Origin: Planctomycetota bacterium
GTDB lineage: Bacteria > Planctomycetota > PLA2 > JAEUHO01
Assembly: GCA_965223505.1 (NCBI GenBank)
Contig: CBDCWP010000015.1
Span: forward strand, 1 to 25,467
Length of the DNA stretch: 25,467 nucleotides
Reading direction: 5' to 3'
Shown here: in pieces, positions 2,083 to 24,849 of the stretch
Layout: the number at the start of each line of letters is the position of its first letter
Numbering within the stretch: position 1 is the stretch's first letter
Notes under the pieces: model-generated
Seen by the model: only the letters and a program-made list of their open reading frames with translations
Databases searched by the model: none
Told to the model about the DNA's origin: nothing
Made by a program: the position numbers and the translations under genes

Positions 2083-3993
2083 ATGCGTGTAGGTGCCTTC
2101 GGTGCGCTGATGGGCGCGATCTGCCTTGCTTCGCTCTCGGCCGCGAGAGCGGATGGCGAAGCGGTCGAGATCGAGTTCTTCCTCGGCGTCCCCGGCGCGA
2201 AGCACGCCCCGCGCTTCTCCGCCAAACCCGTGACGGCGAAGCTCTCGTCGGTGAAGGCACGCGGGCTGCAGGGCATCGAGCACCTCGGCGGACGCATCAA
2301 GATCGGGCCGAAGCCGGGCAAGGGACGGCCGTTCGTGCTCGGGCGCAGTCGAGAGGGGATGGTCTACGACCTGCTCGTCATCGACGCGAACGGTGACGGC
2401 AAGCTCGAAGACGAGATGCCCGCGCGCTTCGAGCTTCGCCAGAGCGGCGGCAAGAACCACTCGATGTTCGAGTTCGTCGTACGCGTGAACCATGACGGCA
2501 AGGGCGAGCCCGAGCGGCATCCCTTGTCCATGAGCGTGTCCACGACGGGCAACGGCGATGCGCCGCAGGTGCTGTCGTACTCCAGCGCCGGGTATCGCAG
2601 CTGTCGGGTCATCCTCGGCGGCGAAGGGTACTTCGTCGTGCTCTCCGATGCGCAGAGTGACGGGGTCTACGGCGAGGGCGACAGCTGGACGATCCGGCCG
2701 GCGACGACCCATGAACCCTACGAGATCGTCCACGCCCGGACGGTCGGCGACTACGTCTGGGCCGGCGGCAAGGCGTGGAAGCTGAAGCTGGAGGGAACGA
2801 GGGGCAAGCATGCGCGTCTGGTTCCGTTCGATCCCGGCATCACCGAGGAGGAAGACCGAAGGAAGCGCAATCCGGTCGCGGCGGACCCCGAGGACCCGGA
2901 GATCGAGACGCCGCTCGAATTCGTGTACGACATCGAGGCGGGGCGGGCGGAGGCGCAGCAGGAGCAGGCGGCGTTGTTCCTCAGCTTCGAGGCGGCCGGA
3001 TGCGCGCAGTGTCAGGCCATGCGTGGCGCCGTGTATGGGAACACCGAGATTGCCTCGGCGGCGAACGGCCTCGTCTGTGTCCAGCTCGATGCGCAGAAAG
3101 ATCCATTGGTTCACGAGTACGGCGTCAAGGACCATCCCACCGGCATCCTGTTCGATCCGGACGGCGACGAGATCGAGCGCTTCGAAGGCGTTCAGTCGGT
3201 CAACGAGTTCCTCGCGTTTCTGTCCGAGGCCCATTCGTACCTGTGGCCCTCCGACCACGAACCCGCGAAGCTCAAGGGCGCCGCGAAGAAGCGGCACGCG
3301 AAGGTGGTGAAGGCCCTCTTCCGGTACCTCGACGACAACAAGGGGCACGGCTTGCTCGTGGACCGGATTGCGGATCTCGGCACACGAAAGAACCGCGCCG
3401 CGCGCGATGCCCTGATCCAGTTCGCCGAGAAGCGCAAGAGCAAGGAGTACGTCGCCGCCGCGTTCTTCGCGATCGCGAAGATCTCCGGCAAGCGGAGCAT
3501 CGAATTCCTCTGCGGGAAGAAGGGCCTCGCATCGGGCGACTTCCTCGTCGCGCAGAAGGCCGCTGAGGCGCTGGGAACGGCGAAGGATCCCAGGGCGATC
3601 GGCCCGATCACGAGCGTCATGACGAGCAAGGGAACGAAGATCGAGATCGTTCACGCATGCGCGATCGCGTTGGCGAAGTGCGGCCCCGACGATGAAGCGG
3701 TGACGGAGGTCATTCTCGAGTACACGGGCCATCAGAAGGACACGATCCGCGCGGGCGCAGTCGAGGCGTTGGGGTATCTGAAGTCCGAGCGGGCGCTCGC
3801 GCGGCTGAAGGAGTTCCTGAAGCACGACAAGAACACGCGCGTCCGCGCCCACGCGGCGTGGGGGATCGGACACACGATGCGCACCGAGCTGATTCCCCTA
3901 CTTCGTGACGCGATCAAGGACGACAAGGCGCACACGGTTCGCACCGCGGCACTGGAGGCCATTCGCGAGATCCAGGGCGAGGAGAAGAAATAG
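2083..3993 (+). CDS. Exported multidomain protein: N-terminal beta domain with a Ca-binding-like loop, thioredoxin-like CxxC domain, C-terminal HEAT repeats
   Basis: Signal peptide ending in A-R-A; DANGDGKLEDE loop; FEAAGCAQCQAM...DHPTGILFDPDG (CxxC and cis-Pro region); HEAT motifs AAEALG, IRAGAVEALG, VRAHAAWGIG, VRTAALEAI; GAGGGAGGG RBS. Confidence 0.8.
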   Translation: MRVGAFGALMGAICLASLSAARADGEAVEIEFFLGVPGAKHAPRFSAKPVTAKLSSVKARGLQGIEHLGGRIKIGPKPGKGRPFVLGRSREGMVYDLLVIDANGDGKLEDEMPARFELRQSGGKNHSMFEFVVRVNHDGKGEPERHPLSMSVSTTGNGDAPQVLSYSSAGYRSCRVILGGEGYFVVLSDAQSDGVYGEGDSWTIRPATTHEPYEIVHARTVGDYVWAGGKAWKLKLEGTRGKHARLVPFDPGITEEEDRRKRNPVAADPEDPEIETPLEFVYDIEAGRAEAQQEQAALFLSFEAAGCAQCQAMRGAVYGNTEIASAANGLVCVQLDAQKDPLVHEYGVKDHPTGILFDPDGDEIERFEGVQSVNEFLAFLSEAHSYLWPSDHEPAKLKGAAKKRHAKVVKALFRYLDDNKGHGLLVDRIADLGTRKNRAARDALIQFAEKRKSKEYVAAAFFAIAKISGKRSIEFLCGKKGLASGDFLVAQKAAEALGTAKDPRAIGPITSVMTSKGTKIEIVHACAIALAKCGPDDEAVTEVILEYTGHQKDTIRAGAVEALGYLKSERALARLKEFLKHDKNTRVRAHAAWGIGHTMRTELIPLLRDAIKDDKAHTVRTAALEAIREIQGEEKK

Positions 3994-4028
3994 ACTCACT
4001 CCCCGCGGCTGCCAGACGCTTCGGTGGA

Positions 4029-4847
4029 TCAGCGGTCTCTGCTGCGCGGGAGAACCGCCGCGACGTTGGCGCCGTGGATGCCCGATTGCAGCCTCACCGT
4101 CGGTGACAGGGGGTGCTTGACGTACGCGAACCTCTCGGTGACGCGGATCGACTCGAATCCCGCGGCAGCCAGCAGCTCGCACAGGTCGTCGATCGTCAAG
4201 AGGCTTGCTGTGATGGTGTTCTCCCAGTCGGCGGGGAGTCTCCGCTCCAAGAACACGTCTGCGAGCAGGAGACGTCCGCCGGGCTTGAGCACGCGGGCCA
4301 TCTCGGCCAGCGCACACGCCTTGTCGTATGTGTTGTTGAGCACGCCGTTGGACATCGCGGCGTCGACGCTCGCGTCCTTGACGGGCAGGCACTCTGCCAG
4401 ACCATCGCGAATGTCGACGCGATCGGCCACGCCCATCGCGATGGCGTTGCGCCGCGCTTCGGCCCGCATCTCGGGCGTGAAGTCGACCCCGACGACGCGG
4501 CCCGAGGATCCAACGCCCTTCGCGGCCAGCAGCAGGTCGACCCCCGCGCCCGAGCCGACGTCGAGCACCGTTTCGCCCGGGTGGATCGGGCCGATCCGCA
4601 ACGGATTGCCGACGCCGGCGAATCGCTCGACGGCGGACGCGGGCAGGCGCTCGAGTTGTGCGCGGTCGTACCGCAAGCGTTCCACGGCGTAGTCGATGCC
4701 GTAGTGCGCGGACCGCCCCGTTCGCGGGTCGGCGACCACCCGCGCATAGGTCTGCCGCAAGCTCGTCTGCGGCGGCTGCAGATCCAGCGGGCGGGCGCGT
4801 GAGCCGAGCATGGCGGGCCTCCGCCACGGCCAACGGGGCCGGGGCAT
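4029..4847 (-). CDS. Class I SAM-dependent methyltransferase, ArsM/UbiE-related family (FAGVGNP subtype)
   Basis: PGETVLDVGSGAGVD (motif I), RVVGVDFTPEM, LPVKDASVDAAMSNGVLN, EMARVLKPGGRL. Start at 4847 (GGAG upstream) or 4811. Confidence 0.85.
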   Translation of the reverse strand: MPRPRWPWRRPAMLGSRARPLDLQPPQTSLRQTYARVVADPRTGRSAHYGIDYAVERLRYDRAQLERLPASAVERFAGVGNPLRIGPIHPGETVLDVGSGAGVDLLLAAKGVGSSGRVVGVDFTPEMRAEARRNAIAMGVADRVDIRDGLAECLPVKDASVDAAMSNGVLNNTYDKACALAEMARVLKPGGRLLLADVFLERRLPADWENTITASLLTIDDLCELLAAAGFESIRVTERFAYVKHPLSPTVRLQSGIHGANVAAVLPRSRDR

Positions 4848-4900
4848 GAAGGCTCAACTCCGCACGGGGCCCCATCGGGGACCGAAAACCTGCGGTCGTT

Positions 4901-4927
4901 TGCGTCTTTCTTCCGCACGCGGCGTCT
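4901..4927 (+). promoter_or_regulatory. Putative ECF (SigZ-dependent) promoter TGCGTC-N16-CGTCT upstream of the Cys-rich peptide/sigZ genes
   Basis: TGCGTC at 4901-4906, 16-nt spacer, CGTCT at 4923-4927. This is ECF-type geometry with a CGTC -10 element. Assignment to SigZ is inference from typical ECF autoregulation. Confidence 0.5.
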
Positions 4928-4992
4928 TCAGGGGTGGTTCGGTGACGTGCCCCCCGGCCGAACCCCAAGCAACCGGGGGCGGAGACATCCTC

Positions 4993-5211
4993 ATGTCCAC
5001 AACGATTGGACTCGTCCTGGCCGTGGGCCTGGCGCTGCTCGTCCCGCTGGCATTCGCAGGTGAGGCGCCGAGCGAGCGGAGCGCGTGCTGCCCCGAGTGC
5101 CCCCCCGAGTGTCGGGAGGACTGCCGGCCCGGCTGCTGCGAAGAATGCCCGCCGGACTGCTGCGATCCGGCGTCGTGCTGTCCCAAGGCAGGCGCGGAAG
5201 ACGAAGAGTAA
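4993..5211 (+). CDS. Small exported Cys-rich (metallothionein-like) protein, 72 aa
   Basis: GGAG RBS at 4981, ATG at 4993; signal peptide ending PLAFA; mature part ACCPECPPECREDCRPGCCEECPPDCCDPASCCPK has 12 Cys in 32 residues; acidic tail. Confidence 0.8.
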   Translation: MSTTIGLVLAVGLALLVPLAFAGEAPSERSACCPECPPECREDCRPGCCEECPPDCCDPASCCPKAGAEDEE

Positions 5212-5215
5212 CGAA

Positions 5216-5239
5216 GCGGGGCCGGGAGGCCGGCCCCGC
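5216..5239 (+). terminator. Perfect GC hairpin between the Cys-rich gene and sigZ (partial terminator or mRNA-stabilising stem)
   Basis: GCGGGGCCGG-GAGG-CCGGCCCCGC, a 10-bp stem 4 nt after the TAA, with no U-tract. Confidence 0.55.
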
Positions 5240-5262
5240 ACCCGCCCTACGATGGAGGGCCC

Positions 5263-5838
5263 TTGAGCGACGACGCGACCGAAGTCGAACGAGTCTGGCG
5301 TGCTCACGCAGCGCGGCTGCGCGCGTACCTCGCTTCGCGGCTGAGGAATCCCTCCGACGTCGACGACGTGCTTCAAGACGTCTTGATCAAGACGCATGCC
5401 GGGCTGCCGGGGCTGCGCGACCCCGGGCGACTGGTGCCGTGGCTGTATCGCGTGACGCGCAATGCGTTGTTGGATCATGCGCGCAAAGCGCGATCTCGGC
5501 GAGATACGGGCCAACGCTCCGAACGCGACATCGTCGACTCTCGGCGTGAGCCCCTCGACGACGTGCGCAGCGAGCTGGCATCGTGCGTGCGCCCGTTCGT
5601 CGAGGCGCTGCCGGAGCGCTATCGAGAGACGATGGCGGCTGTCGAGCTCGAGGGGCGCCCGCAGAAGGAGGTGGCCAAGCGGCTCGGGATCTCGCTCTCC
5701 GCCGTCAAGTCGCGGGTTCAACGCGGCCGGCGGATGTTGCGCGGCGTTTTCGATCGATGCTGCACGGTCCAGATCGACCGGCGCGGGAACGTCATCGACT
5801 ACGAGCGAAACGGCGACTGCTCCGCCGAGGGCTGCTGA
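5263..5838 (+). CDS. sigZ: ECF RNA polymerase sigma factor, SigZ family
   Basis: Region 2 DVDDVLQDVLIK...WLYRVTRNALLDH; region 4 LPERYRE...QKEVAKRLGISLSAVKSRVQRGRRML; SigZ-type tail FDRCCTVQIDRRGNVIDY...C...C. TTG start with GGAGGG RBS. Confidence 0.9.
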   Translation: MSDDATEVERVWRAHAARLRAYLASRLRNPSDVDDVLQDVLIKTHAGLPGLRDPGRLVPWLYRVTRNALLDHARKARSRRDTGQRSERDIVDSRREPLDDVRSELASCVRPFVEALPERYRETMAAVELEGRPQKEVAKRLGISLSAVKSRVQRGRRMLRGVFDRCCTVQIDRRGNVIDYERNGDCSAEGC

Positions 5839-5909
5839 GCGCGGTCCAGTGGTTGGGCGAGCAGTGTCGGAGAATCAGCCGCGCACGCGATCCGCGGTAC
5901 CTTGCTGCC

Positions 5910-6425
5910 ATGACGACTGTCGACCCCGAGTTCTTGATTCGCCGTGCGCGGCCCGCCGACGCCGAAGACATGGTCGCGCTGCTCAACCCCATCATCGAGC
6001 AGCGCAAGTACAGCGCCCTGGTCACGCCCGCTTCCGTGGAAACGCAGCGCGCGTTCATCGAGACCTTCCCCGAGCGAGGAGTCTTCCACGTCGCCGAGGA
6101 GCTCGCGACCCGACGCGTCGTCGGCATGCAGGACCTCGCGCCGTTCTACGCCGACTCCGCCGCATTCGACCACGTCGCCGGCATCGCGACGTTCGTCGCG
6201 CTCACGCATCACCGGCGCGGCATCGCGGCCCGTCTCTTCGAGGCGTCGTTCGCTGCGGCGCGAGAAGCCGGCTTCGAGAAGATCCTCACCTTCGTTCGGG
6301 CGGACAACGAAGCGGGTCTCCGCGCGTACCTGGGCCAGGGATTCACCAAGGTCGGTACGGCTGAACGCCTCGCCAAGATCGACGGTCGCTACGTCGACGA
6401 GGTGATCATCGAGCGATTCTTGTAG
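5910..6425 (+). CDS. GNAT N-acetyltransferase, YncA/PAT/ArsN1-like, 171 aa
   Basis: IRRARPADAEDM; acetyl-CoA motif HHRRGIAARL; VRADNEAGLRAYLGQGF; C-terminus AKIDGRYVDEVIIERFL. Start at ATG 5910; the track's 5583 start overlaps sigZ. Confidence 0.88.
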   Translation: MTTVDPEFLIRRARPADAEDMVALLNPIIEQRKYSALVTPASVETQRAFIETFPERGVFHVAEELATRRVVGMQDLAPFYADSAAFDHVAGIATFVALTHHRRGIAARLFEASFAAAREAGFEKILTFVRADNEAGLRAYLGQGFTKVGTAERLAKIDGRYVDEVIIERFL

Positions 6426-6505
6426 GACGCGACGAGCGTGTGCTGTTCGATCACCGGGGTCTCCGTCCCGGTGTCGAGGTCTCCGATGCGGTTACGGTAG
6501 TGCGC

Positions 6506-7504
6506 ATGAAGGTTTCCGCCGCCGGGCTCTGCATTCTGATCGTCTCCGTGGCCGCCGCGTGGGCCGAGCCGCCGAAGGAGCCGGAGACGAGGGCGCAGGC
6601 GATCGCCATCCTGGTCGGGGCGGAGAGCTACGACGAGGAATCCGTCGGCCTCGCAGGCGCGAAGTCGACCACGTTCCGGGCGTACGAGTGGCTCCGTGAG
6701 AACGTCGCCGTCGAAGAGTGGGCGGAGCTGACCGCGCACGAGAGCCCTGTCGTTCGCTGCTACGCCGTACGCGCGTTGGCGGATGCCAAGGACCCCGAGC
6801 GCTTGCGCAAGGCCGTCTTCGAGGGCATCCGAGACACGGCGCGTGTTCGGCACTTCCAGGGCTGCATCATGGGCGAAGCCCATGTCGGTGACGTGATCGT
6901 CCGAATCGGGTTGGCCGGCTTCGACGAGGAGACCAGGGCCGAGCTTCGAGATGCGATGCTCGCCTCGGACGTTCCCCTCCTCGAGCGCGAGCGCATGCTG
7001 TGGACGGGGGCGTTCGGCGACAAGCACGTCGACCGGGTCCTCGAGCTGGCGCGCGACGGGAACCTGCACGCGCTCCGTGGACTCGCGACCCGAAAGCACC
7101 CCGAGGCATCCAAGATCATCGTGAAGATTCTCGGCGGCGCGAAGACGGAGGGGGGCGACGAAGACGACGAGGTGTGCCTGCACAGTGCCGTCATGTCGAC
7201 CGTCGGGTGGCCCGATCCACGCTTCTGGAAGGGCCTCGATCGGATGCGCGAGAGGGCGGCCAAAGAGCTCAACCACAACTGGGTGCGTGACTACATGAAG
7301 GCCGTGGCCGGATACGAGAACGAGGCCGCGGCTCGCGTGCTACATCAGCTGCTGGACGTGAATCGCGGCGCGGAGTGGAAACAACGGCTGACCGCGGAAA
7401 AGGTGTTCAAGGCACTCGACGGACACCGCGTGGAGAGTTTCGAGACCTTGCGCCGACGTCTCGCAATCACCTGGTCCCTTCGGGACGAGGCGAGCGGCAA
7501 GTAG
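6506..7504 (+). CDS. Exported alpha-helical (HEAT-like) hypothetical protein
   Basis: Signal peptide MKVSAAGLCILIVSVAAAWA; ELTAHESPVVRCYAVRALAD is HEAT-like; codon bias matches neighbouring genes. Confidence 0.72.
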   Translation: MKVSAAGLCILIVSVAAAWAEPPKEPETRAQAIAILVGAESYDEESVGLAGAKSTTFRAYEWLRENVAVEEWAELTAHESPVVRCYAVRALADAKDPERLRKAVFEGIRDTARVRHFQGCIMGEAHVGDVIVRIGLAGFDEETRAELRDAMLASDVPLLERERMLWTGAFGDKHVDRVLELARDGNLHALRGLATRKHPEASKIIVKILGGAKTEGGDEDDEVCLHSAVMSTVGWPDPRFWKGLDRMRERAAKELNHNWVRDYMKAVAGYENEAAARVLHQLLDVNRGAEWKQRLTAEKVFKALDGHRVESFETLRRRLAITWSLRDEASGK

Positions 7505-7521
7505 ATTCGCAGCTCGGTCCG

Positions 7522-10500
7522 TCACGAAGCGTCGCAGGCCGTCAGTACTTGGCGGTAGAGCGGTACCGACGCCCGCATCTTCTCACGCCACGCCTCCGGA
7601 GCGCCCGCGATCAGCGCTTCGACCTCGTCCGCCGCCTTGCGTCGATCCGTCCGGGCCCCGGTTCTCTCCGCGAGCGTCGCCCAGGCGCGCACGCGATCGA
7701 GCGCCTGCATGGCGCCACTCCACTTCTCGAGCTCCATGCGCGCCGTGAGGGGATTGCCGCCGGGCAGCAGCGCAAGGAAGCAACGCGTGAGCGCCGCGGC
7801 TCCCTCCAAGGCTCCGGACTCCTCGATGCGCAGCGCCGTCTCGAGCTGGGCTTGCGCCTCTTCGGACCGACCGGTCAGCAGGAGTCCGACGCCGAGCCGC
7901 ATGTGCACCACGGCCGCTTCCAATCGAGACCCCAGCTCGTCGAGACGCGGTTCCAGCGCCTGCAGCCGTTCGGTCATGGCTTCGAGCTCGTTCCGCGCCT
8001 CCAGCACGCTCGCCTCGCACAAGCGCAGCAACAGCGCTTCGCGTGGCGCGTTGGCCTCGCTCACCGCCCGTGACGCGCCGGACAAGAGCGCCTCCGCTTC
8101 GTCGTACCGACCACTCCAAGCCAGGACCAGAGTCGGCGACGTACTCAGCCGTGCCTGCAGCACCGGTGGCGCGCGTTCACCGAGGAGGTCGCGCCCGCGC
8201 GCGACCGCTTGCCGACACGCCTCGAAGCGTCCCAACGCCCAGAGGATCTGGCTGCGCGAAAACTGCGCGTGCGCCTCCACATCGCCATAGCTCAGCTGCG
8301 AGCACAGAAGCACGGCCTCGTCCGCTTGGGCGAGCGCTTCGTCGAATCGACCGAGCTGCAAGAGCGTTTGCGCCATGTTGGTCTGCACCACGGAGACCAT
8401 CCGCAAGTGCCCTCGTCGGTGGCCGATCTCGCAAACGCTCTCCAGGATGTCGAGCGACGCCTGAGGGTCCGCCCGCAGGTACGCGATCTTGGCGAGCACC
8501 AAGCGCGCGCTCATCTCGTTGATCGTCTCGCCGTGCAGCTGCGCGATGGTGACTGCGTGCTCGAGCATCTCTTTGGCTTCGTCCATGCGGCCCAGCTCGA
8601 GCGAGATCGCGCCCAGATTGCGCGCAACGACGCACATGTCGGCGGCATTGCCGGCCTCGCGACTGAGCTCCAGCGCTTCTTTCGACGCCTCGTACGCCTC
8701 GGCCAGACGTCCGCGCGCCTCCAGCGCCATGGCGTGTTCCGCGAGTGCGCGCGCGAGTGTGCTCGGCGCACCCCTGCCTCTCACGAGCCGGATCGCCTCG
8801 GCGGTGTCGTCGACGGCTTCGTCGTATCGAAGCAGGAGTCTACGGCAGTAGCCGAGGTGGATGAGCACCTCCGCTGCGAGCACCGGATCGCCGTGTGCGT
8901 CGCGCAGGGCGTCCGCCGCTTCGAGCGCCGGGAGCACCTCCTTGTGAGGCGCGTAGGCCATGAGGAAGATCGCCAACCGACGTTGCAGGCCGGCTTCGAA
9001 GGCCGGCTCCTTCGGCGTGTCGACCTCGACGAGTGCGCGCGCCAGACGCGCGCCTTCACGCAGCTCCATCGAGGCCATGAGGTGATCGAAGGCGGCGTGC
9101 GCGTACGGCAGCGCGCGCTCGGGCGTTCCCGCGAGCACGAAGTGGCGGGCGAGCTGCCAAGCCGCCGCGCCGCGCGGTGATTCACCCTCGTCGAGCTTCG
9201 ACTCGATCGCGTCGCCCAGCGCCGCGTGATACGCGCATCGAAGCGCGGGTGGCAGTTCGTCCTGCAGGACCTCCTGCACGAGATGATGACGAAATCGATA
9301 CTCGTTGCCGATCGGCTCGACGAGACCGAGGCTCTGGTCGACCTCGTGGAGCAGGCGCAGCCCTCCGATGCGCGGAAGATCCCCGGCCTCGCAGACCAGT
9401 AGGGGGTCGAAACGATTGCCGCAGCACGCGGCGGCGCCGAGCAGACTGCGAGCCTCGGTGGAGAGCGACCGCAGCCGCACCTCGACCATCTCGCGCACCG
9501 ATCGAGGAATGGTGAACCGTTCGTCATCGGGGCCGCCGCGGCGCGCGCGCACTTCCCGCGCGAACTCGATCAGGCAGAACGGGTTTCCGTCGGCGTTGTC
9601 GATGTACTCACTCGTGTCTGCCGTCACACCGGCGTCGGATCCCATGGCATCGCGGACGACCGCGATCGATCCGGCAAGATCCAGGCCGCCGAGGTCGATG
9701 CGCTCGAAGCGGTCAATGCGGCGCAGCGGGTCCAGAAACGCGGCGTCGAGCTCGGGGCGCGACGTGAACAGGATCAGCACGGAGTCGTTCTCGAGTGCGT
9801 GCGCCAAGGCCAGCAGGAGACCGCGCGACGCGTCGTTGGCGAAGTGCACGTCCTCCCAGACCAGCACGACAGGCGTGTCGCGAGCGATGCCCCTGAGCAT
9901 CCGGGCCCACGCGGTCATGCGTGCCGCCTCGGACAGACCCGTTTCGGGGGCGTCGACGACGCCCCGCATCTCTTGTGCGAGGGCTCCCGCGAGCGCGGCG
10001 TGCGGACCGAGAAGTCGTTCGAGGCGCGCTTCGAGCTCGTGCTGCCCGAAGTGGTCGAGGAACGCCTGATTGAGAGGGTTGTTGCCGACCGCGAGGCCTC
10101 CGGGACCGTGCGATGCCATGATGACGTGCGCGGGGATGTCCCTGCGACGCAGGGCGGACAACCACTCGCGGACGAGACGGCTCTTGCCGATACCGGCCTC
10201 GCCGATCACCGCACGGACCGGCCCCTCGCCCGACCTCGCCGCCTCCCACGCTCGGTCCAGCGTGAGTAGCTCCTCGCCACGTCCGTGGAACCGAACCGCT
10301 TCGGTGGTGTCCATCGGTAGGGACGGCGCGTGCGAAACCGATTGTTCCTTCCACCAACGCGACTGTTCGGCCGCCCGGAGCGTGTCGGCGACGTCGGCAG
10401 CGGGCCCCGGACGTGCCTCGGGGTCGCGCTCGAGCAGCGCCGCGACGAGACGATCGAGGAACGGCGATACGTGCGGCGCCCGCGAGCGAAGTGACGGCGC

Positions 10501-11403
10501 CTTCTCCATGGAGATTCCATGCCGTCCTGCGTGCGGATGCTCGCCGACGACGAGCTGATACAGCAACAGACCCAGGCCGTGCATGTCGGCCGGCGGTCCG
10601 ACCTGCGAGTCGACGATGAGCTGCTCCGGCGCCGCGTAGAGCAGCGTTCCCACGAACTCGCCGGTGGCCGTCAGGCGTCGTCGTTCCTCCACCAACAACG
10701 CCACTCCGAGGTCCATGAGCTTCACCACCTCGTCCGGGGTGATGACGACGTTCTCGGGTTTGACGTCGCGGTGGACGACACCGGCGGCGTGAACGGCCCC
10801 GAGCGCCTCGGCGACCTGCACGCCGATCTCGCAGGCCAGACGCTCCGAGACGGTGCCGACTTGGTCGAGCAGCTCGGTCAGGTTCTGGCCCTCGACGTAC
10901 TCGAGCACGACATAGGGCGACTCGACGCCGTGACAGGTGAATCGTCCCGCGCGCAGCGTACGTACGACACCGGGGTGGTCGATCCGTCGACCCAACTCGA
11001 CCTCGCGTTCGAACCGCTCGCGGAGACCCTTGCGGTCAGAGAGGTGCGGATGAATCAGCTTGACGGCGACCCTGGTCCCGTCCGCGTCGCGAGCTTCGAA
11101 GACCCGCCCCATGCCGCCTTCGCCAATGACGCGCACGAGGGAGAGGTCGTCGATCCGATCGGGAAACGGGCGTGTCCCGCCCGCGCTCCCCGAAGAGGCT
11201 CTCGGAACGGCGTCGCCGGGTTTGAGGCCTTCGATGACTGCGAGCACGGGGAAGAGCTCCCGAATGCGCTCGGCCAAGGTGGGGTTCGCGACTGCGTACG
11301 TCTCGACGTCGACGGCCTCGCCGCCGCGCAAGCGGCTCACGAACTCGTCGCATAGGATGTCGAACGCGTCGTCATCGGAGGGAAGGGCCGGATCGGAGCT
11401 CAT
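7522..11403 (-). CDS. Ser/Thr protein kinase fused to a STAND/AAA_16-type NTPase and TPR repeats, 1293 aa
   Basis: Kinase motifs IGEGGMGRVF, VAVKLI, VHRDVKPENV, VKLMDLG, GTLLYAAPEQ. Walker A GEAGIGKS, Walker B LVWEDVH. C-terminal TPR-like helices. The likely start is MSSDPALP at 11403, because the track's 12204 start overlaps two + strand genes. Confidence 0.92.
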   Translation of the reverse strand: MSSDPALPSDDDAFDILCDEFVSRLRGGEAVDVETYAVANPTLAERIRELFPVLAVIEGLKPGDAVPRASSGSAGGTRPFPDRIDDLSLVRVIGEGGMGRVFEARDADGTRVAVKLIHPHLSDRKGLRERFEREVELGRRIDHPGVVRTLRAGRFTCHGVESPYVVLEYVEGQNLTELLDQVGTVSERLACEIGVQVAEALGAVHAAGVVHRDVKPENVVITPDEVVKLMDLGVALLVEERRRLTATGEFVGTLLYAAPEQLIVDSQVGPPADMHGLGLLLYQLVVGEHPHAGRHGISMEKAPSLRSRAPHVSPFLDRLVAALLERDPEARPGPAADVADTLRAAEQSRWWKEQSVSHAPSLPMDTTEAVRFHGRGEELLTLDRAWEAARSGEGPVRAVIGEAGIGKSRLVREWLSALRRRDIPAHVIMASHGPGGLAVGNNPLNQAFLDHFGQHELEARLERLLGPHAALAGALAQEMRGVVDAPETGLSEAARMTAWARMLRGIARDTPVVLVWEDVHFANDASRGLLLALAHALENDSVLILFTSRPELDAAFLDPLRRIDRFERIDLGGLDLAGSIAVVRDAMGSDAGVTADTSEYIDNADGNPFCLIEFAREVRARRGGPDDERFTIPRSVREMVEVRLRSLSTEARSLLGAAACCGNRFDPLLVCEAGDLPRIGGLRLLHEVDQSLGLVEPIGNEYRFRHHLVQEVLQDELPPALRCAYHAALGDAIESKLDEGESPRGAAAWQLARHFVLAGTPERALPYAHAAFDHLMASMELREGARLARALVEVDTPKEPAFEAGLQRRLAIFLMAYAPHKEVLPALEAADALRDAHGDPVLAAEVLIHLGYCRRLLLRYDEAVDDTAEAIRLVRGRGAPSTLARALAEHAMALEARGRLAEAYEASKEALELSREAGNAADMCVVARNLGAISLELGRMDEAKEMLEHAVTIAQLHGETINEMSARLVLAKIAYLRADPQASLDILESVCEIGHRRGHLRMVSVVQTNMAQTLLQLGRFDEALAQADEAVLLCSQLSYGDVEAHAQFSRSQILWALGRFEACRQAVARGRDLLGERAPPVLQARLSTSPTLVLAWSGRYDEAEALLSGASRAVSEANAPREALLLRLCEASVLEARNELEAMTERLQALEPRLDELGSRLEAAVVHMRLGVGLLLTGRSEEAQAQLETALRIEESGALEGAAALTRCFLALLPGGNPLTARMELEKWSGAMQALDRVRAWATLAERTGARTDRRKAADEVEALIAGAPEAWREKMRASVPLYRQVLTACDAS

Positions 11404-11490
11404 CGGCGGTCGAGGGTACCGGAACCGGCTCGATTCGACGATGCGACAGGAATCGGGACCCCGAGCGATCGGCGCACAGGAGGACGCGTG

Positions 11491-11976
11491 ATGCACACGC
11501 AACCCGGACTGATCGACTTGCACGAACGTACGCACCGCAGCTTGTGCGGGTTTCTCGACCACTGCGCCGGTTTCTCCGACGACGAGCAGGTCCGGGAGCT
11601 CGAGGGCTTCGGCTATCCGACCCTGCGCCTGCAGCTCCACCATGTGATCGGCGCCGAGCAGTACTGGGTCGGGGTGCTGAAAGGGCTGATGCTGACCGAC
11701 GAGCACGAAGCGGACTACGCATCGATGGACGCGCTCGGCGCGTTTCGCGAGCGGGTCTTCGATACCACGCAGGCGTACCTCCGCGCGACACCGGACGACG
11801 AGCTCAACGCCGTTCGAACGGTGACGACCTGGGGTGACAAGCAAGTCGATCTGGCGCCGGCGCACGTGCTGCTTCGCACGCAAACGCACATTTTCCAGCA
11901 CCAGGGGCAGGTAGCCGCCATGTGCCGCTTGCTGGGGCGGCCGATCCCCGCTGGACTGGACTTCGCGCTGACGTAG
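11491..11976 (+). CDS. DinB/YfiT family protein
   Basis: TLRLQLHHVIGAEQYW and THIFQHQGQVAAMCRLLG give the DinB His triad; AGGAGG RBS 7 nt upstream. Confidence 0.88.
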   Translation: MHTQPGLIDLHERTHRSLCGFLDHCAGFSDDEQVRELEGFGYPTLRLQLHHVIGAEQYWVGVLKGLMLTDEHEADYASMDALGAFRERVFDTTQAYLRATPDDELNAVRTVTTWGDKQVDLAPAHVLLRTQTHIFQHQGQVAAMCRLLGRPIPAGLDFALT

Positions 11977-12070
11977 CCGCGCCGGGGCGCCTGCATCGCA
12001 CTTTGTCACTCGACGCGACGTGGCGACGCCTGAGAGAATGACCGTCACCGACACCAGCAGGGTCATCGTC

Positions 12071-12586
12071 ATGCGCAAACGTGAATCGTTTCTTCTGTTC
12101 CTGGCCGCCGTCGCCGGCATCTTGATCCTTCCCACCGTCGTGCAGGCACGCACCCGCACCGCGTCCGACCTCGGCAGTCGTGTCGCGGCACTCGAGGCCG
12201 ACAACGCGGCGCAGGCCGCGACGATCGCGGATCAAGAGGATCGCATCGCGGCACTCGAGTCCGTGGCGATGAACACCGTGACCGGATTCGTCAACGGGGA
12301 CGGATCGATACAGGACTTTTCACGCTCCGGTGTGACGGTGACCCGGAACGGGCCCGGCGACTACACCATCGACTACCCGGCCGGCACCTTCTTCGGGGTG
12401 GACGGGACGGGCATCGCGCTGCCGATCGCCGCGTTCAGCCCGCGCGAGCCGGTGTTTGCGGAGGACTGGAGTGCGGGCGCGTTCAACGACGGATCCGGCG
12501 AGGTGACGGTGGAGTTTCGCGACGCGCTGGGCGTGCCCACGGACACGCAGTTCGGCGTGATCGTCACTGCGGACGCCAGCCAGTAG
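12071..12586 (+). CDS. Exported protein: signal/anchor, short coiled coil and beta-rich C-terminal domain
   Basis: MRKRESFLLFLAAVAGILILPTVVQA; heptads RVAALEADNAAQAATIADQEDRIAALE; beta domain GFVNGDG...VTVTRNGPGDYTIDY. An alternative start at 12038 is possible. Confidence 0.72.
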   Translation: MRKRESFLLFLAAVAGILILPTVVQARTRTASDLGSRVAALEADNAAQAATIADQEDRIAALESVAMNTVTGFVNGDGSIQDFSRSGVTVTRNGPGDYTIDYPAGTFFGVDGTGIALPIAAFSPREPVFAEDWSAGAFNDGSGEVTVEFRDALGVPTDTQFGVIVTADASQ

Positions 12587-13622: not shown

Positions 13623-15122
13623 TCAGCGCGGAAGTCCCGCAAGCGCGGCCCGAACGTCCGCCGCGGTCTCGACGGGTACGTCCCAGCGCTTGGCGAACGC
13701 GAAGACCTCGCCCGCGAGATTCGCGACGCGCGGCGCGTCGCCCGAGAGCGCCGGCGCGACGTACGCCGCGCATCGAACCGCCACGCGCGCGCCTGAGATG
13801 TCGCCGGACGACAGCGCCGCCTCGACCCACGTGGACAACGCGCTCACGTACGCCGGCCAGGCATTCGGTGTCCCGAGACGCGCGCGTGCCGCAGCGACGG
13901 CAGCGCTTCGATGGGGCTCGTCTTCGTCGAAGGGGACGGCGCCGGCGCGCTCGAGCAGCTCGCGCCCGATCGCGTCGTCGCGAAAGGCGAAGTGCAGGGC
14001 GATGAGCAGCGCGACCTCCTTCGTAGCGGTGTTGCTTGCGAACCGCTCGCGCAGGAGCCGCTGCGCGCGGTCCTCGCCGGCGTCGGCGAGTCGCAGCAGC
14101 GTCTCCGTGGCGACGAGCGCCGGCGCATCCCCGATCACTCGGAGCAGATGTGCCCGCGCGCGGGGGTCGTCGTCCTCGACCAGGATGCGGAGCAGGCGCG
14201 TGCGTACGTCGTCCGGTAGCGGCGACCCCAGTCGCGCGAGCAGCTCGAAGCGCAGGTGGTCGGCGGCGCGCGGGTCATCGCCGACCATGGCCTTCACATA
14301 GCGCGCACTCTCGACGGAGGCCGCAAGGCGGTCGCGGTCGCGGAGGGTTTGGAGATCGAGATCGTCGGCCGATAGGAGTGCGGATTCGAGCTTCGAGGAC
14401 AGATGGCGTCGCCTGTCTTCGTTCAGCACAGGGTCGGAGCGTTTGCGACCATCCGCGAAGACGCGCAGGGATTGATCCGAACGGGCCACGAGGGCCGCCT
14501 GCCCCTCACCCCAGTGTGCCGCACCGCGCGAGATCTCGAGCCGCACGCGATGGGGGGCCGGCAGGTCGCGGGCGATGCCTGGCAACACCGCCAGGTCGAC
14601 TGGCGCATGCGGCACCAGCACGACTTCGGCGCGTGTCCCCTCATCGAGGACCGCTTCGCCGAGCGGCGTTTCCAGCACCGCCGCGCGTTCCGCGGTCACG
14701 GTGGCCGCGCCCGCGTGCAGCCGGGCGCGATCGCTGCCGCGAATCTCGAGGACCGATCCCACGCGAAGATCGATCGTCCCTCCGGCCGCCGGCAAGCTGA
14801 GCTCCCCCTCGGTGGTCACGATCCGATCGCCCGCGCGGATGACGCTGCTCTTGCGTACGTTGCCGTCGGGGTCGACGAGCGTCGTGAGTCGATCGGCGCG
14901 AAGGAGGACTGGCCGCTCCGCGGGCGCCTGCGTGAAGAACAACAGCGCGCCCAAGGCGACGAGGACGACTGCCGCAGCGGCGACGAGACGGCCGCGCCGG
15001 ACGCCCCGCGGCGTGCCGGGTTCCTCGAGACCGAGGACGCCGCGCAGATCCGGCGGACGCAGGCCGCCGAGGATCTCCTCCAAGCCGATCTCGATCAGAC
15101 GATCGTCGAACGCGTCGTTCAC
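13623..15122 (-). CDS. Membrane-anchored anti-sigma factor with a FecR-like beta domain and C-terminal HEAT-like helices
   Basis: GTG start overlaps the sigma stop (GTGA) with a GGAGG RBS; short cytoplasmic N-terminus; TM segment LVAAAAVVLVALGALLFF; FecR-like IRAGDRIVT...ARLHAGAA...VLETPLGEAVLDEGTRAEV; ILVEDDDPRARAHLLRVIG. Confidence 0.78.
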   Translation of the reverse strand: MNDAFDDRLIEIGLEEILGGLRPPDLRGVLGLEEPGTPRGVRRGRLVAAAAVVLVALGALLFFTQAPAERPVLLRADRLTTLVDPDGNVRKSSVIRAGDRIVTTEGELSLPAAGGTIDLRVGSVLEIRGSDRARLHAGAATVTAERAAVLETPLGEAVLDEGTRAEVVLVPHAPVDLAVLPGIARDLPAPHRVRLEISRGAAHWGEGQAALVARSDQSLRVFADGRKRSDPVLNEDRRRHLSSKLESALLSADDLDLQTLRDRDRLAASVESARYVKAMVGDDPRAADHLRFELLARLGSPLPDDVRTRLLRILVEDDDPRARAHLLRVIGDAPALVATETLLRLADAGEDRAQRLLRERFASNTATKEVALLIALHFAFRDDAIGRELLERAGAVPFDEDEPHRSAAVAAARARLGTPNAWPAYVSALSTWVEAALSSGDISGARVAVRCAAYVAPALSGDAPRVANLAGEVFAFAKRWDVPVETAADVRAALAGLPR

Positions 15123-15643
15123 GTCAGTCGCCTCCGAATGCACGCCCGGAGGTGCTCCCGCGCGCGTCGAAGCAGTGTCTTCGCGCCGTCCTCGGTGATG
15201 TCGAGCGCGTCGGCCACGCGACGCCGAGAGCGCGTTCCGGCGTAGAACACGTCGAGGGCCCTGCGCGCTCGGTCAGCGAGCGTGGCGAGGCAGGCGCGGA
15301 GGGCGTCGAGCAGCTCGCTGCCGTCGTTCCCCGCCGTGCGCTCGGCCCACGCCGCTTCGGCGCGTTCGATGTCGGTGAACGCGGGCCGCAATCGCTCGCG
15401 GCGCACCGCCATGAGGAAGTGGTTGCGGGCGACCGTTCGCAACCAGGCGGCCGTGGCCGCGGGGTTTCGCACCTCGAACGGGCGTTCCCATGCGGTCACG
15501 AACGTCTGTTGGACCAGGTCTTCGGCCAGATCGGGCTCGCAGCCCAGGTAGCGCAGATATCGCCAGAGCCCGACCTGGTGTTTTGCGACCAGGTCGTCCA
15601 GACGAACCGAGGGCGTGGAGGTGGCTTCCAGCAAGGTCTCCAT
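15119..15643 (-). CDS. ECF RNA polymerase sigma-70 factor
   Basis: LWRYLRYLGCEPDLAEDLVQQTF, WLRTVARNHFL; region 4 VADALDITEDGAKTLLRRAREHLRACI. Confidence 0.92.
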   Translation of the reverse strand: METLLEATSTPSVRLDDLVAKHQVGLWRYLRYLGCEPDLAEDLVQQTFVTAWERPFEVRNPAATAAWLRTVARNHFLMAVRRERLRPAFTDIERAEAAWAERTAGNDGSELLDALRACLATLADRARRALDVFYAGTRSRRRVADALDITEDGAKTLLRRAREHLRACIRRRLT

Positions 15644-15652
15644 CCCACCCTC

Positions 15653-15679
15653 AATGCGGCGCGGGTCCAAGAGGGTTCA
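15653..15679 (-). promoter_or_regulatory. ECF promoter copy 1 (autoregulatory): TGAACC-N16-GCATT
   Basis: Minus strand TGAACC ctcttggacccgcgcc GCATT, ending 9 nt before the sigma ATG. Confidence 0.7.
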
Positions 15680-20179: not shown

Positions 20180-20207
20180 GTCAAATTTCCATGGGCCGCG
20201 GCGTATG
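20180..20207 (+). promoter_or_regulatory. Putative autoregulatory ECF promoter GTCAAA-N16-CGTATG
   Basis: GTCAAA 20180-20185, 16-nt spacer, CGTATG 20202-20207, 7 nt before the sigma ATG. Single copy only. Confidence 0.45.
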
Positions 20208-20214
20208 GAGGTTG

Positions 20215-20775
20215 ATGGACGAGGCGCCCCCGACACCCGACGCGACACTCGTCTTGGACTGTCTCCAGGGAGACACCACCGCCTGGGAGGCGCTCTACGC
20301 GCGTCACCACGCCGCGATCTACAACTTCCTCGCTCAGCGCTTGCGCGGCAACGCGGCGCTCTGCGACGACCTCTTCCAGGAGACGATGCTGAAGATCGTC
20401 TCGCGTCTCGCGCAGTTCGACCCCGCGCGGGGCTCGTTTCACGGGTGGGCATACGGCATCGCGATCAACCAACTCCGTGACCACGGCCGCAGGCTGCGCC
20501 GGGAGGAAACCAAGTTGTTGGGGCTGCGCGCGATGGGTCCGCCGGAGGCGACGGTTCGGCCTAGCGGCACCGAGAGCAGGGAGACCGTCGCGCTGGTGTG
20601 CTCGCTGCTCTCGCCGCGGCACCAGCAGGTGCTCGAGCTCAAGTACGCGCGCGGCTGCTCGATGACGGAGATCGCCGAGCGGCTGGGTACGGGCGCGCAG
20701 GCCGTCGGCTCGTTGCTGCATCGAGCGCGCGCGGCCTTTCGCCTGGCGTATGCGCGCGTCACGGAGACGGAGTGA
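20215..20775 (+). CDS. ECF RNA polymerase sigma-70 factor
   Basis: GDTTAWEALYARH...DDLFQETMLKI...FDPARGSFHGWAYGIAINQLRDH; region 4 SMTEIAERLGTGAQAVGSLLHRARAAF. Confidence 0.93.
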   Translation: MDEAPPTPDATLVLDCLQGDTTAWEALYARHHAAIYNFLAQRLRGNAALCDDLFQETMLKIVSRLAQFDPARGSFHGWAYGIAINQLRDHGRRLRREETKLLGLRAMGPPEATVRPSGTESRETVALVCSLLSPRHQQVLELKYARGCSMTEIAERLGTGAQAVGSLLHRARAAFRLAYARVTETE

Positions 20776-24235: not shown

Positions 24236-24381
24236 GGCGGACGAAAGCGTACGCGCAGGTACCGAGTCTCGCGCACCGGCAATTCTCGGCGCCGACCACG
24301 ACTACTCCGTTGGACGACCCCCCGCTCGCGTCGCCGGAGCCGGGACGGATCGCGGGAAACGGGGTGTCGCGAGAGGACCCC

Positions 24382-24849
24382 ATGAACACCACGAGCACCG
24401 CTCACCGCTGCGAACGCGGCTTCATTCCCTTCCCACTCGTCATCGTGATCGCCACGACGCTCGGCGTGCTGGCCGCCTTCCTCATTCCCGCCGTGCAGGC
24501 GGCGAGGGAAACCGCGACCCGCATGGAGGCGTCGAACAATCTGAAGCAGATCGGCCTGGCCATCCACAACCACGCCGACGCGACCAAGCTGGAGGCGGAG
24601 GCCGTCCAGCGCCTCCTCGTGGACGCCCTGCGAACAGGCAACCTGGACCGCGAAGCGCTTCGCCGTCGGCACGCGCGGTTGAACGAGCTTCGAGAGCGTC
24701 AAGGAGAGCTGCTTCGAGAGATGCGCCGGATGCGCGGCAGCATCCGGGATCCGCGCGAGCGCGGGCTGCTGGAGGACGGCATCGACGCGCTCGCCGCGCT
24801 GGAGCGGCACACCCGCACGGTCGTCATCGGTCTGCAGATCATGTTCTGA
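24382..24849 (+). CDS. Pilin-like protein with a planctomycete DUF1559-type N-terminus and an atypical short helical C-terminus
   Basis: RGF-hydrophobic helix-LIPAVQAARETATRMEASNNLKQIGLAIHNHAD; GAGAGG RBS. Confidence 0.8.
   Translation: MNTTSTAHRCERGFIPFPLVIVIATTLGVLAAFLIPAVQAARETATRMEASNNLKQIGLAIHNHADATKLEAEAVQRLLVDALRTGNLDREALRRRHARLNELRERQGELLREMRRMRGSIRDPRERGLLEDGIDALAALERHTRTVVIGLQIMF

Follow-up and report, generated by a model that had tools for sequence, protein, structure and literature searches.

Gene content of the locus

The stretch from position 1 to 25,467 of contig CBDCWP010000015.1 of a Planctomycetota bacterium (assembly GCA_965223505.1), hereafter the window, carries a gene for a SigZ-type extracytoplasmic function (ECF) sigma factor directly downstream of a gene for a small cysteine-rich peptide, and this pair lies behind an ECF-type promoter, with a methyltransferase gene on one side and a GNAT acetyltransferase gene on the other (Table 1). 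A preliminary description had presented the four genes as one SigZ-controlled metal(loid) response module. While Pfam and NCBIfam searches together with inspection of the sequence found each of the features it listed at the positions in Table 1, only the peptide gene and sigZ proved to be conserved together in other genomes. Judged from the sequences compared, the conserved unit is the promoter, the peptide gene, the hairpin behind it and sigZ, with the methyltransferase and GNAT genes outside it; gene content, synteny, and the conservation of the promoter and of the cysteines are established by sequence.

Table 1. Features of the peptide-sigZ locus and of the two genes adjoining it
Feature	Position	Strand	Details
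Methyltransferase gene	4029-4847	-	272 aa, ArsM-like S-adenosylmethionine (SAM) methyltransferase
ECF-type promoter	4901-4927	+	TGCGTCTTTCTTCCGCACGCGGCGTCT; -35 TGCGTC, 16-nt spacer, -10 CGTCT
Cys-rich peptide gene	4993-5211	+	72 aa; ATG at 4993 after GGAG
G+C-rich hairpin	5216-5239	+	10 bp, no T-run; immediately 3' of the peptide stop codon
SigZ-type ECF sigma gene (sigZ)	5263-5838	+	191 aa, TTG start; ECF238 (former ECF24) type
GNAT acetyltransferase gene	5910-6425	+	171 aa, ATG at 5910; PAT-like, Acetyltransf_4 type

The methyltransferase and peptide genes are separated by 145 nt and sigZ and the GNAT gene by 72 nt, and a simple scan of positions 3900-7600 for sigma-70 promoters and terminators made no calls. 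In agreement with the preliminary description, the locus is not a canonical ars operon, which would combine arsR with acr3 or arsB and usually arsC: Pfam and NCBIfam found no ArsR, ArsC or Acr3 family among the window's 18 main open reading frames (ORFs). For the genome as a whole, which is 92% complete, no Acr3 was found and no ArsM scored above its cut-off, with arsB and arsC not searched for genome-wide.

A SigZ-type sigma factor with a cysteine cluster

The sigma factor passes the curated NCBIfam model for SigZ, TIGR02959, with 178.8 bits against a cut-off of 168.65, aligning to profile positions 1-169 of 170 with its cysteine tail covered, and scores 194.9 bits on the sister model NF007215, below the cut-off of 212. 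Pfam assigns it Sigma70_r2 and r4_2 only, after which comes a 25-residue tail with four cysteines beyond residue 165. Neither Pfam nor NCBIfam detected an anti-sigma domain in the sigma factor's neighbours (the Cys-rich peptide, the GNAT, a weakly HEAT-like exported protein and the methyltransferase), and its earlier portrayal as a Cys-tailed SigZ factor lacking an anti-sigma partner therefore holds, with an anti-sigma factor of a novel type being possible. Consisting of sigma-2 and sigma-4 alone, with a short Cys-rich extension of about 20 aa and no anti-sigma gene nearby, the protein has the features of group ECF238, an assignment based on published group traits and not on ECF Hub group models. 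It is the sole SigZ-type gene among 67 ECF-like matches in its own genome.

Five cysteines are present, C108 and the tail set CC166/167-x18-C186-x4-C191. Across 49 aligned sequences, C167 is invariant (49/49), C166 is found in 45 and C108 in 30, and between two and four further cysteines follow the CC pair in 47. An extra cysteine 11-16 residues past the pair occurs in 15 of the 19 sigma factors that lack C108 versus 8 of the 30 that have it (Fisher p 5e-4, not corrected for phylogeny), an exchange which suggests that a single site draws on both C108 and the tail. The CxC motif of the sigma-2/sigma-4 linker is absent from the window sigma factor and from all of its aligned relatives (0/49), which makes the protein SigZ/ECF24-type and not CorE-like in the strict sense. 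The analogy to the Myxococcus factor CorE drawn in the preliminary description is thus a loose one, sound for the Cys tail and the missing anti-sigma factor but not for the linker.

In an AlphaFold2 model built with the 49-sequence alignment (mean predicted local distance difference test score 88, last nine residues of low confidence), the CC pair is predicted to end the last sigma-4 helix and to be followed by a beta-hairpin formed by residues 167-171 and 177-182. No solved sigma factor structure matches past residue 164, so that the tail is uncovered.

Conserved neighbourhoods and the link to arsenic

Searching 40 genomes of the same order at E <= 1e-20 gave a match in ten, of which seven carry the CC tail; the other three were ordinary ECF sigma factors with anti-sigma-like neighbours and were left out. 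Among the seven, a peptide-type ORF (signal peptide plus CC repeats) lies directly upstream in three (G012, G001, G021), a canonical arsM lies directly upstream in two (G026, G027) and 2 kb upstream in one (G014), and the locus of G024 has a DUF2703 protein ending GCCGPSEGCCG. Neither the methyltransferase nor the GNAT has a counterpart at any of the seven loci, contrary to the co-occurrence expected of a four-gene module.

A wider scan with the single sigma protein, taking one genome per species, returned 80 loci, of which 45 were SigZ-type (L030-L073 and L103, mostly Myxococcota) and 35, without a Cys tail, were set aside. For the SigZ-type loci, a canonical arsM was located less than 200 nt upstream in 33, mostly overlapping the sigma start, and within 1.3 kb in three, and was absent from nine, one of which has just 100 nt of upstream sequence. 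One sigZ-linked arsM of a relative scored 320 bits against the cut-off of 263.

We also surveyed 63 flanking ORFs in 21 arsM-sigZ loci, re-checking some against curated cut-offs; since the ORFs of these high-GC loci were selected by their GC content at codon positions and assessed by Pfam matches, the survey is certain to have overlooked some neighbouring genes. Many of the SigZ-type loci with an upstream arsM lie in genuine ars islands. Acr3 was present in four of the 21 loci (457 bits versus 283) and ArsC-ArsN2 fusions in five, and the flanks also hold MIP channels, a GAPDH and an ArsC-glyoxalase fusion. An ArsN2 GNAT directly follows sigZ in L103 (141.7 versus 125), ArsH directly follows it in L058 (351 versus 292), and an ArsI/CadI enzyme directly precedes it in L069 (149.7 versus 116). 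By sequence comparison, the peptide in the window occupies the operon slot that arsM holds elsewhere.

These partners bear on an alternative in which the cysteine cluster would act as a thiol-redox switch for disulfide or electrophile stress, with the peptide as a secreted disulfide-rich product such as a redox buffer or knotted peptide. Vicinal or clustered cysteines are classical redox switches, as in RsrA-type proteins, exported Cys-rich peptides usually end up oxidised, and thiol-active proteins do occur close by, namely a ResA/TlpA-like oxidoreductase beside sigZ in G001 and an exported thioredoxin-like protein that the window encodes 1 kb upstream. However, the conserved partners that predominate are specific to arsenic (arsM, Acr3, ArsH, ArsN2) and do not belong to thiol repair, and the four peptide loci do not share the thioredoxin-like neighbours. 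We consider a redox switch unlikely.

A shared promoter and a probably autoregulated operon

The preliminary description had placed a promoter at the position given in Table 1, and this is exactly a conserved ECF-type motif. TGCGTC-N16-CGTCT, with identical spacing, is found upstream of the peptide gene in all four peptide-sigZ loci (160 nt upstream scanned); the copy in the window lies 66 nt before the peptide ATG and is the top motif match in the window. A slightly looser motif occurs 35-94 nt ahead of the arsM start codon in all 29 arsM upstream regions available for inspection, where this pattern is expected by chance in about 1.5% of 160-nt stretches (a base-composition estimate). The strict pattern has three occurrences in the 5.15-Mb genome, the other two being inside ORFs.

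The same motif precedes sigZ itself in four loci (L021, L047, L061, L065), cytosolic 66-71-aa proteins with the pattern CCGG...CC...GCGC...CC in three (L036, L047, L061), a 29-aa peptide ending DDCCDEGCCDEGCC in L032, and ArsP_1 permeases in L071 and L073. A bipartite CGTC-type motif of fixed spacing that accompanies the sigma gene is most readily explained as the sigma factor's own promoter, and the operon as autoregulated. On this sequence evidence, autoregulation of the operon refines the general statement in the available part of the ECF238 account that the group is 'not autoregulated' (PMC7826278).

Two sets of small CC-rich products came to light in the same scan. A protein of 66-71 aa that belongs to no family (CCGG..ACCALDAEVKATGG..GCGC..GCC; L065:5953-6780, L036:4591-4788, L047:1692-1904 and L061:670-882) stands behind a SigZ-type promoter in three Polyangiaceae genomes and forms a C-terminal fusion with the sigma factor in a Kofleriaceae genome; the CC protein fused to the sigma factor of L065 is 70 aa long. 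In a Rubrobacteraceae genome (L032:6577-6700), a SigZ-type promoter just past sigZ is followed by an unannotated 29-codon ORF, the source of the peptide ending DDCCDEGCCDEGCC.

The cysteine-rich peptide and its hairpin

The peptide begins with a hydrophobic N-terminus of about 18-23 residues that ends in a proline and an AFA-G junction, followed by 12 cysteines in about 49 residues, arranged in CC-x2-C-x3-C repeats, and an acidic tail. Zero Pfam or NCBIfam families matched it at E up to 0.01, metallothionein families included. With no histidine and no domain match, it is also unlike the ZAS proteins, which have a cytoplasmic anti-sigma domain with HxxxCxxC. The preliminary description had proposed looking for small Cys-rich ORFs beside SigZ genes, and such a search was productive: real homologues of the peptide in the examined genomes are directly upstream of a SigZ-type gene in four cases out of four, counting the window's own genome, and nine cysteines are invariant across the four genomes (its own plus G012, G001 and G021). 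This invariance and the constant adjacency to sigZ indicate that the peptide is more than a chance ORF.

A profile of the peptide gave eight matches at E <= 1e-3 in 1.84 billion representative proteins and three real matches in 401 genomes of the phylum, all three within the window's bacterial family; weak matches in two further genomes (G193, G317) were out-of-frame artefacts. With a word-based search of 5.8 billion proteins the peptide matched only itself, scanning metagenome DNA with an alignment of the peptides yielded 250 pattern matches of which none was confirmed, and the ESM Atlas held no match of at least 0.9. Across these searches, the family is confined to one bacterial family and a few metagenome proteins. 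The peptide was also considered as a precursor of a ribosomally synthesised and post-translationally modified peptide, a reading that was rejected because no maturase gene is nearby.

We regard the peptide as probably exported through a Sec signal peptide. The opposite topology would make it a regulator anchored in the membrane, the N-terminus facing outwards and the Cys tail lying in the cytoplasm, serving as an unconventional anti-sigma factor or co-sensor through shared Cys-ligand chemistry. The length of the hydrophobic segment (18-22 residues) and the uncharged N-terminus fit such an arrangement, as does the fusion of a related CC-rich domain to the sigma factor in L065. The segment nevertheless ends, like a cleaved signal peptide, in a proline with small residues at -3 and -1, the acidic flank behind it favours export, and one homologue has a classical MK- start. 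Moreover, most SigZ-type sigma factors are arsM-linked and have no such peptide, which is accordingly not needed for regulation. An anchored regulator is, on balance, very improbable.

At each of the four peptide-sigZ loci the peptide stop codon is followed by a strong hairpin whose position, though not its sequence, is conserved, and the simple terminator scan does not call the copy in the window. We infer from this arrangement an attenuator or RNA stabiliser, and its presence after the peptide stop in all four loci would favour the peptide message over the sigma message.

Two thiol-disulfide proteins lie close to peptide loci. The ResA/TlpA-like oxidoreductase of G001 is encoded convergently with sigZ (L024:2209-3111, minus strand), and together with the window's thioredoxin-like neighbour it may be a sign that the exported Cys-rich peptide is kept in a suitable redox state.

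The methyltransferase and acetyltransferase genes

The divergent methyltransferase shares the ArsM fold and SAM-binding motifs. Its best solved relatives are ArsMs and its best NCBIfam matches are ArsM-type models, all of them below cut-off (PRK11873/NF008823, 166 versus 263). Alignment to the solved ArsMs revealed that GCGNP has become GVGNP and SNCV has become SNGV, and that the third ligand site, the C-terminal xCxGG, falls in a six-residue deletion without any cysteine, both in the window protein and in a 74%-identical relative; we take the cysteines of these three motifs to be the As(III) ligands of ArsM. The ArsM function put forward in the preliminary description is contradicted by the loss of all of these cysteines, by the lack of a SigZ-type motif on the methyltransferase strand of the window, and by the absence of a SigZ gene or motif within 1.5 kb of the gene's homologues (0/8).

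The proteins closest to it make up a large subfamily in which both substitutions recur and the third ligand is retained. Among 34 database homologues, the third-ligand site is a cysteine in LWAAC(I/V)GGAL in 19 and a tyrosine in one, and the gene call ends there in 13. All eight genomic homologues from the phylum (L117-L124) have an in-frame TGA at that codon (LWAx-U-IAGALP), and database gene calls of 205 aa terminate exactly at this position. An in-frame TGA at a cysteine position in eight of eight genomes points to selenocysteine, and the TGA-bearing ArsM-like subfamily probably consists of selenoproteins whose gene calls are routinely cut short in error. The idea that the window gene is a decayed copy of a sigZ-linked arsM was rejected, as it belongs to this separate Cys/Sec-bearing subfamily.

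A homologue of the methyltransferase adjoins a homologue of the window's kinase-AAA-TPR gene in G001 and G015, which suggests that the peptide-sigZ block came between the two secondarily. The older synteny thus looks like that of methyltransferase and kinase, not of methyltransferase and sigZ, and the methyltransferase is probably a bystander. It is one of two genes scoring above 100 bits on the ArsM model in its genome. The best ArsM-like sequence of the genome is an 826-aa fusion of radical SAM/SPASM and ArsM-like domains on another contig (C26:39975-42452, equivalent to L115:476-2953, minus strand), at 224 bits on PRK11873 and likewise below cut-off.

The GNAT had been called ArsN1-like, a label that its scores do not bear out: it reached 70.7 and 39.5 bits on the ArsN1 models NF040503 and NF040504, where the cut-offs are 170 and 210, and did not match the ArsN2 model NF040501. 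Its best solved relative is an uncharacterised acetyltransferase, with ArsN1/PAT matched only at E 4e-7, and no homologue was found near SigZ in the loci of ten relatives or in the 80 other loci. In terms of sequence, it is a generic PAT-like acetyltransferase. The 72-nt gap and the lack of a called terminator make co-transcription with sigZ possible.

On the four-gene reading, the methyltransferase would methylate arsenite, the GNAT would acetylate an organoarsenical, and SigZ would control both along with the peptide. In its favour, ars islands commonly contain genes of these two types, the only sigZ of the genome adjoins one of just two genes that exceed 100 bits on the ArsM model, and an ArsN2 GNAT does follow sigZ in L103. 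Yet the methyltransferase has no As(III) ligands, lies on the opposite strand without a SigZ promoter and has relatives whose copies sit beside a kinase gene, the GNAT falls far short of ArsN1 (70.7 versus 170) with no ArsN2 match, and neither gene occurs at the other three peptide-sigZ loci. We therefore rate an arsenic module of all four genes as highly unlikely.

A model for the peptide-sigZ operon

With moderate confidence, we lean towards a model in which a SigZ-type promoter drives a self-activating peptide-sigZ operon, the sigma factor senses a thiophilic metal(loid) through its own cysteines, and the exported peptide acts as a sponge. The promoter would transcribe the peptide gene and then, by read-through of the hairpin, sigZ, whose product would recognise the promoter of its own operon and so create positive feedback. 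Sigma activity would be set by the five-Cys cluster, with C108 at the start of sigma-4, C166 and C167 at the end of its last helix, and C186 and C191 past the beta-hairpin. Binding of a thiophilic metal(loid), likeliest As(III), to the cluster would yield a form competent with RNA polymerase, a switch that would resemble the binding of metal to the Cys-rich domain of CorE and CorE2, and the exported 12-Cys peptide would capture ions of the same kind beyond the cytoplasm, serving as a sponge or buffer. Here we infer the ligand, activation by binding, export and chelation from sequence.

The peptide and sigma factor are probably an alarm and a sponge for arsenite or a similar soft metal, a reading that follows from the use of the same promoter for arsenic-resistance genes in other bacteria. 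The proposal that the sigma tail senses a thiophilic metal(loid) directly gains comparative support from relatives that are translationally coupled to arsM in ars islands and share the promoter. The companion proposal, that the sigma factor induces an extracytoplasmic chelator, stands as far as the placing of the peptide under the sigma factor's promoter is concerned, while export and chelation are predictions from the peptide's composition.

Several points weigh against this model. The arsenic link for the window comes from relatives at 36-47% identity, and the window and its genome contain no canonical arsM, acr3 or other ars genes (arsB and arsC were not searched for genome-wide). The other three peptide-linked sigma factors form a clade in a maximum-likelihood tree (support 100/98), relative to which the window sigma factor is not resolved. 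The N-terminus of the peptide carries no positive charge in seven of eight family members, one having the MK- start, which leaves its topology uncertain. Exported thiols tend to oxidise, which disfavours a simple periplasmic thiol sponge, and the ion could be another one, since Cu, Zn or Cd are also handled by ArsP_1 permeases and ArsI/CadI enzymes. In the literature we found no experiments on members of this sigma subgroup. Lastly, ArsR is found beside sigZ in 3 of the 21 ars islands, and the sigma factor is perhaps not the sole or primary arsenic sensor there.

The four cysteines around the modelled beta-hairpin could equally be a structural zinc site, in which case zinc would merely stabilise sigma-4 and the hairpin, control would come from the gene's own transcription or from a regulator such as ArsR, and the peptide would be unrelated to sensing. 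Cys pairs flank the predicted hairpin in the manner of a zinc knuckle, ArsR is at hand in those three islands, and the accessible text on ECF238 gives the group as 'not autoregulated' in general and lists no signal for B. subtilis SigZ (PMC7826278). Positive autoregulation with no post-translational gate would, however, be an unstable design, the homologous Cys domain of CorE2 is described as gating activity in the available parts of PMC7826278 and PMC8999054, and the recurrent Cys-rich partners, together with one fusion to the sigma factor, suggest ligand handling. A purely structural role for the cysteines is improbable in our estimation.

A bolder extension of the metal(loid)-sensing model, which we put forward tentatively and think doubtful, holds that SigZ-type (former ECF24) sigma factors generally are one-component arsenite sensors forming an ArsR-independent, self-amplifying switch, rewired here from methylation to a secreted CC-repeat peptide. 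If true, one-component arsenite sensing would give B. subtilis SigZ its missing signal, and the secreted CC-repeat peptide would be without precedent as a thiol sponge acting on arsenite or soft metals outside the cytoplasm.

Other genes in the window

Two probably exported HEAT-repeat proteins are encoded on either side of the locus, at 2083-3993 and 6440-7504, both on the plus strand, and neither gene has a counterpart beside SigZ in the relatives. The protein from 2083-3993 also has a thioredoxin-like domain, being the exported thioredoxin-like protein 1 kb upstream, and has a paralogue with 38% identity on contig C10. The kinase gene (7525-12204, minus strand) encodes a 1560-aa Ser/Thr kinase with AAA_16 and TPR domains. 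Further along, genes at 15122-15670 (minus), 20191-20772 (plus) and 24310-24846 (plus) comprise two ECF sigma genes of ordinary type, both with large ORFs lacking any Pfam family behind them, and one encoding a protein of DUF1559, a family typical of Planctomycetota whose presence may speak for a host from that phylum and not from Myxococcota.

Comparison with known systems

The available part of the ECF classification of Casas-Pastor et al. (2021, PMC7826278) merges ECF24 and ECF44 into ECF238, including CorE2 and B. subtilis SigZ, and characterises the group by a Cys-rich C-terminal extension of about 20 aa, the absence of anti-sigma factors and a proposed role in metal sensing, with no conserved promoter reported. 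Like CorE and CorE2 of Myxococcus xanthus (former ECF44, with CorE2 in ECF238), the window sigma factor is an ECF without an anti-sigma factor and with a Cys-rich C-terminal extension, and the gating by metal envisaged here is that given for CorE and CorE2 in the accessible parts of both accounts (PMC7826278, PMC8999054). According to the available text of the 2022 review, in which the string 'arsen' does not occur, the CxC linker motif defines the CorE-like ECF44 part only (PMC8999054). Unlike these CorE-like factors, the window sigma factor has the single linker cysteine C108 and no CxC. Furthermore, the ligands of CorE and CorE2 are Cu, Cd and Zn, whereas factors of the window type are partnered with arsenic genes or Cys-rich peptides in an operon that appears autoregulated. 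The targets of CorE and CorE2 are metal efflux or oxidase genes. To our knowledge, these two are the only ECF sigma factors with a built-in sensor to have been studied, and for the large SigZ/ECF24 branch we know of no signal, regulon or promoter; the locus and its relatives supply this branch with a cognate promoter, clear targets and, in arsenite, a strong candidate signal.

With B. subtilis SigZ (TIGR02959; ECF238 subgroup 9, former ECF24), the window sigma factor shares its curated family, the lack of an anti-sigma factor and C-terminal cysteines. The B. subtilis protein has two C-terminal cysteines and, in the available text of PMC7826278, no known signal or regulon and no autoregulation; the window protein, in contrast, has five conserved cysteines, and its cognate promoter and first target can be named. 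SigZ is not mentioned in a 2025 review of arsenic in Bacillus, and in open-access papers and preprints we found no description of a link between arsM and ECF sigma factors, of a link between SigZ and arsenic, or of the peptide family.

The proposed As(III) input recalls the ArsR/SmtB repressors, and the genes controlled in the relatives are the same (arsM, acr3, arsC). ArsR/SmtB proteins bind As(III) with three cysteines, two of which are often vicinal. As(III) releases the repressor ArsR, however, whereas the window sigma factor would be an activator with positive feedback, and the two have no sequence relation; if the model is true, arsenic regulation, which is otherwise ascribed to ArsR repressors, gains a second kind of logic based on an activator. 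As for ArsM (CmArsM, 4FR0; Chlamydomonas, 5EVJ), the window methyltransferase differs in lacking the arsenite-binding cysteines, in its sub-cut-off scores, and in coming from a Cys/Sec-bearing side branch in which it has lost that residue.

The peptide, finally, resembles metallothioneins and other metal sponges (SmtA/BmtA, copper storage proteins and bufferin-type periplasmic peptides) as a small, very Cys-rich product accompanied by a metal-type regulator. Some known products of this kind are exported. It differs from them in its CC-x2-C repeats without histidine, in matching no family and in having no modifying enzymes nearby. What the window newly contributes is a Cys-doublet partner that bears a signal peptide, encoded in a genome that lacks a canonical ars system. 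If the model is true, tiny Cys-doublet peptides, apparently secreted here, would form a new family of metal(loid) buffers, overlooked by annotation, of possible interest for biosensing and bioremediation and set apart from the established metallothioneins by their repeat pattern.

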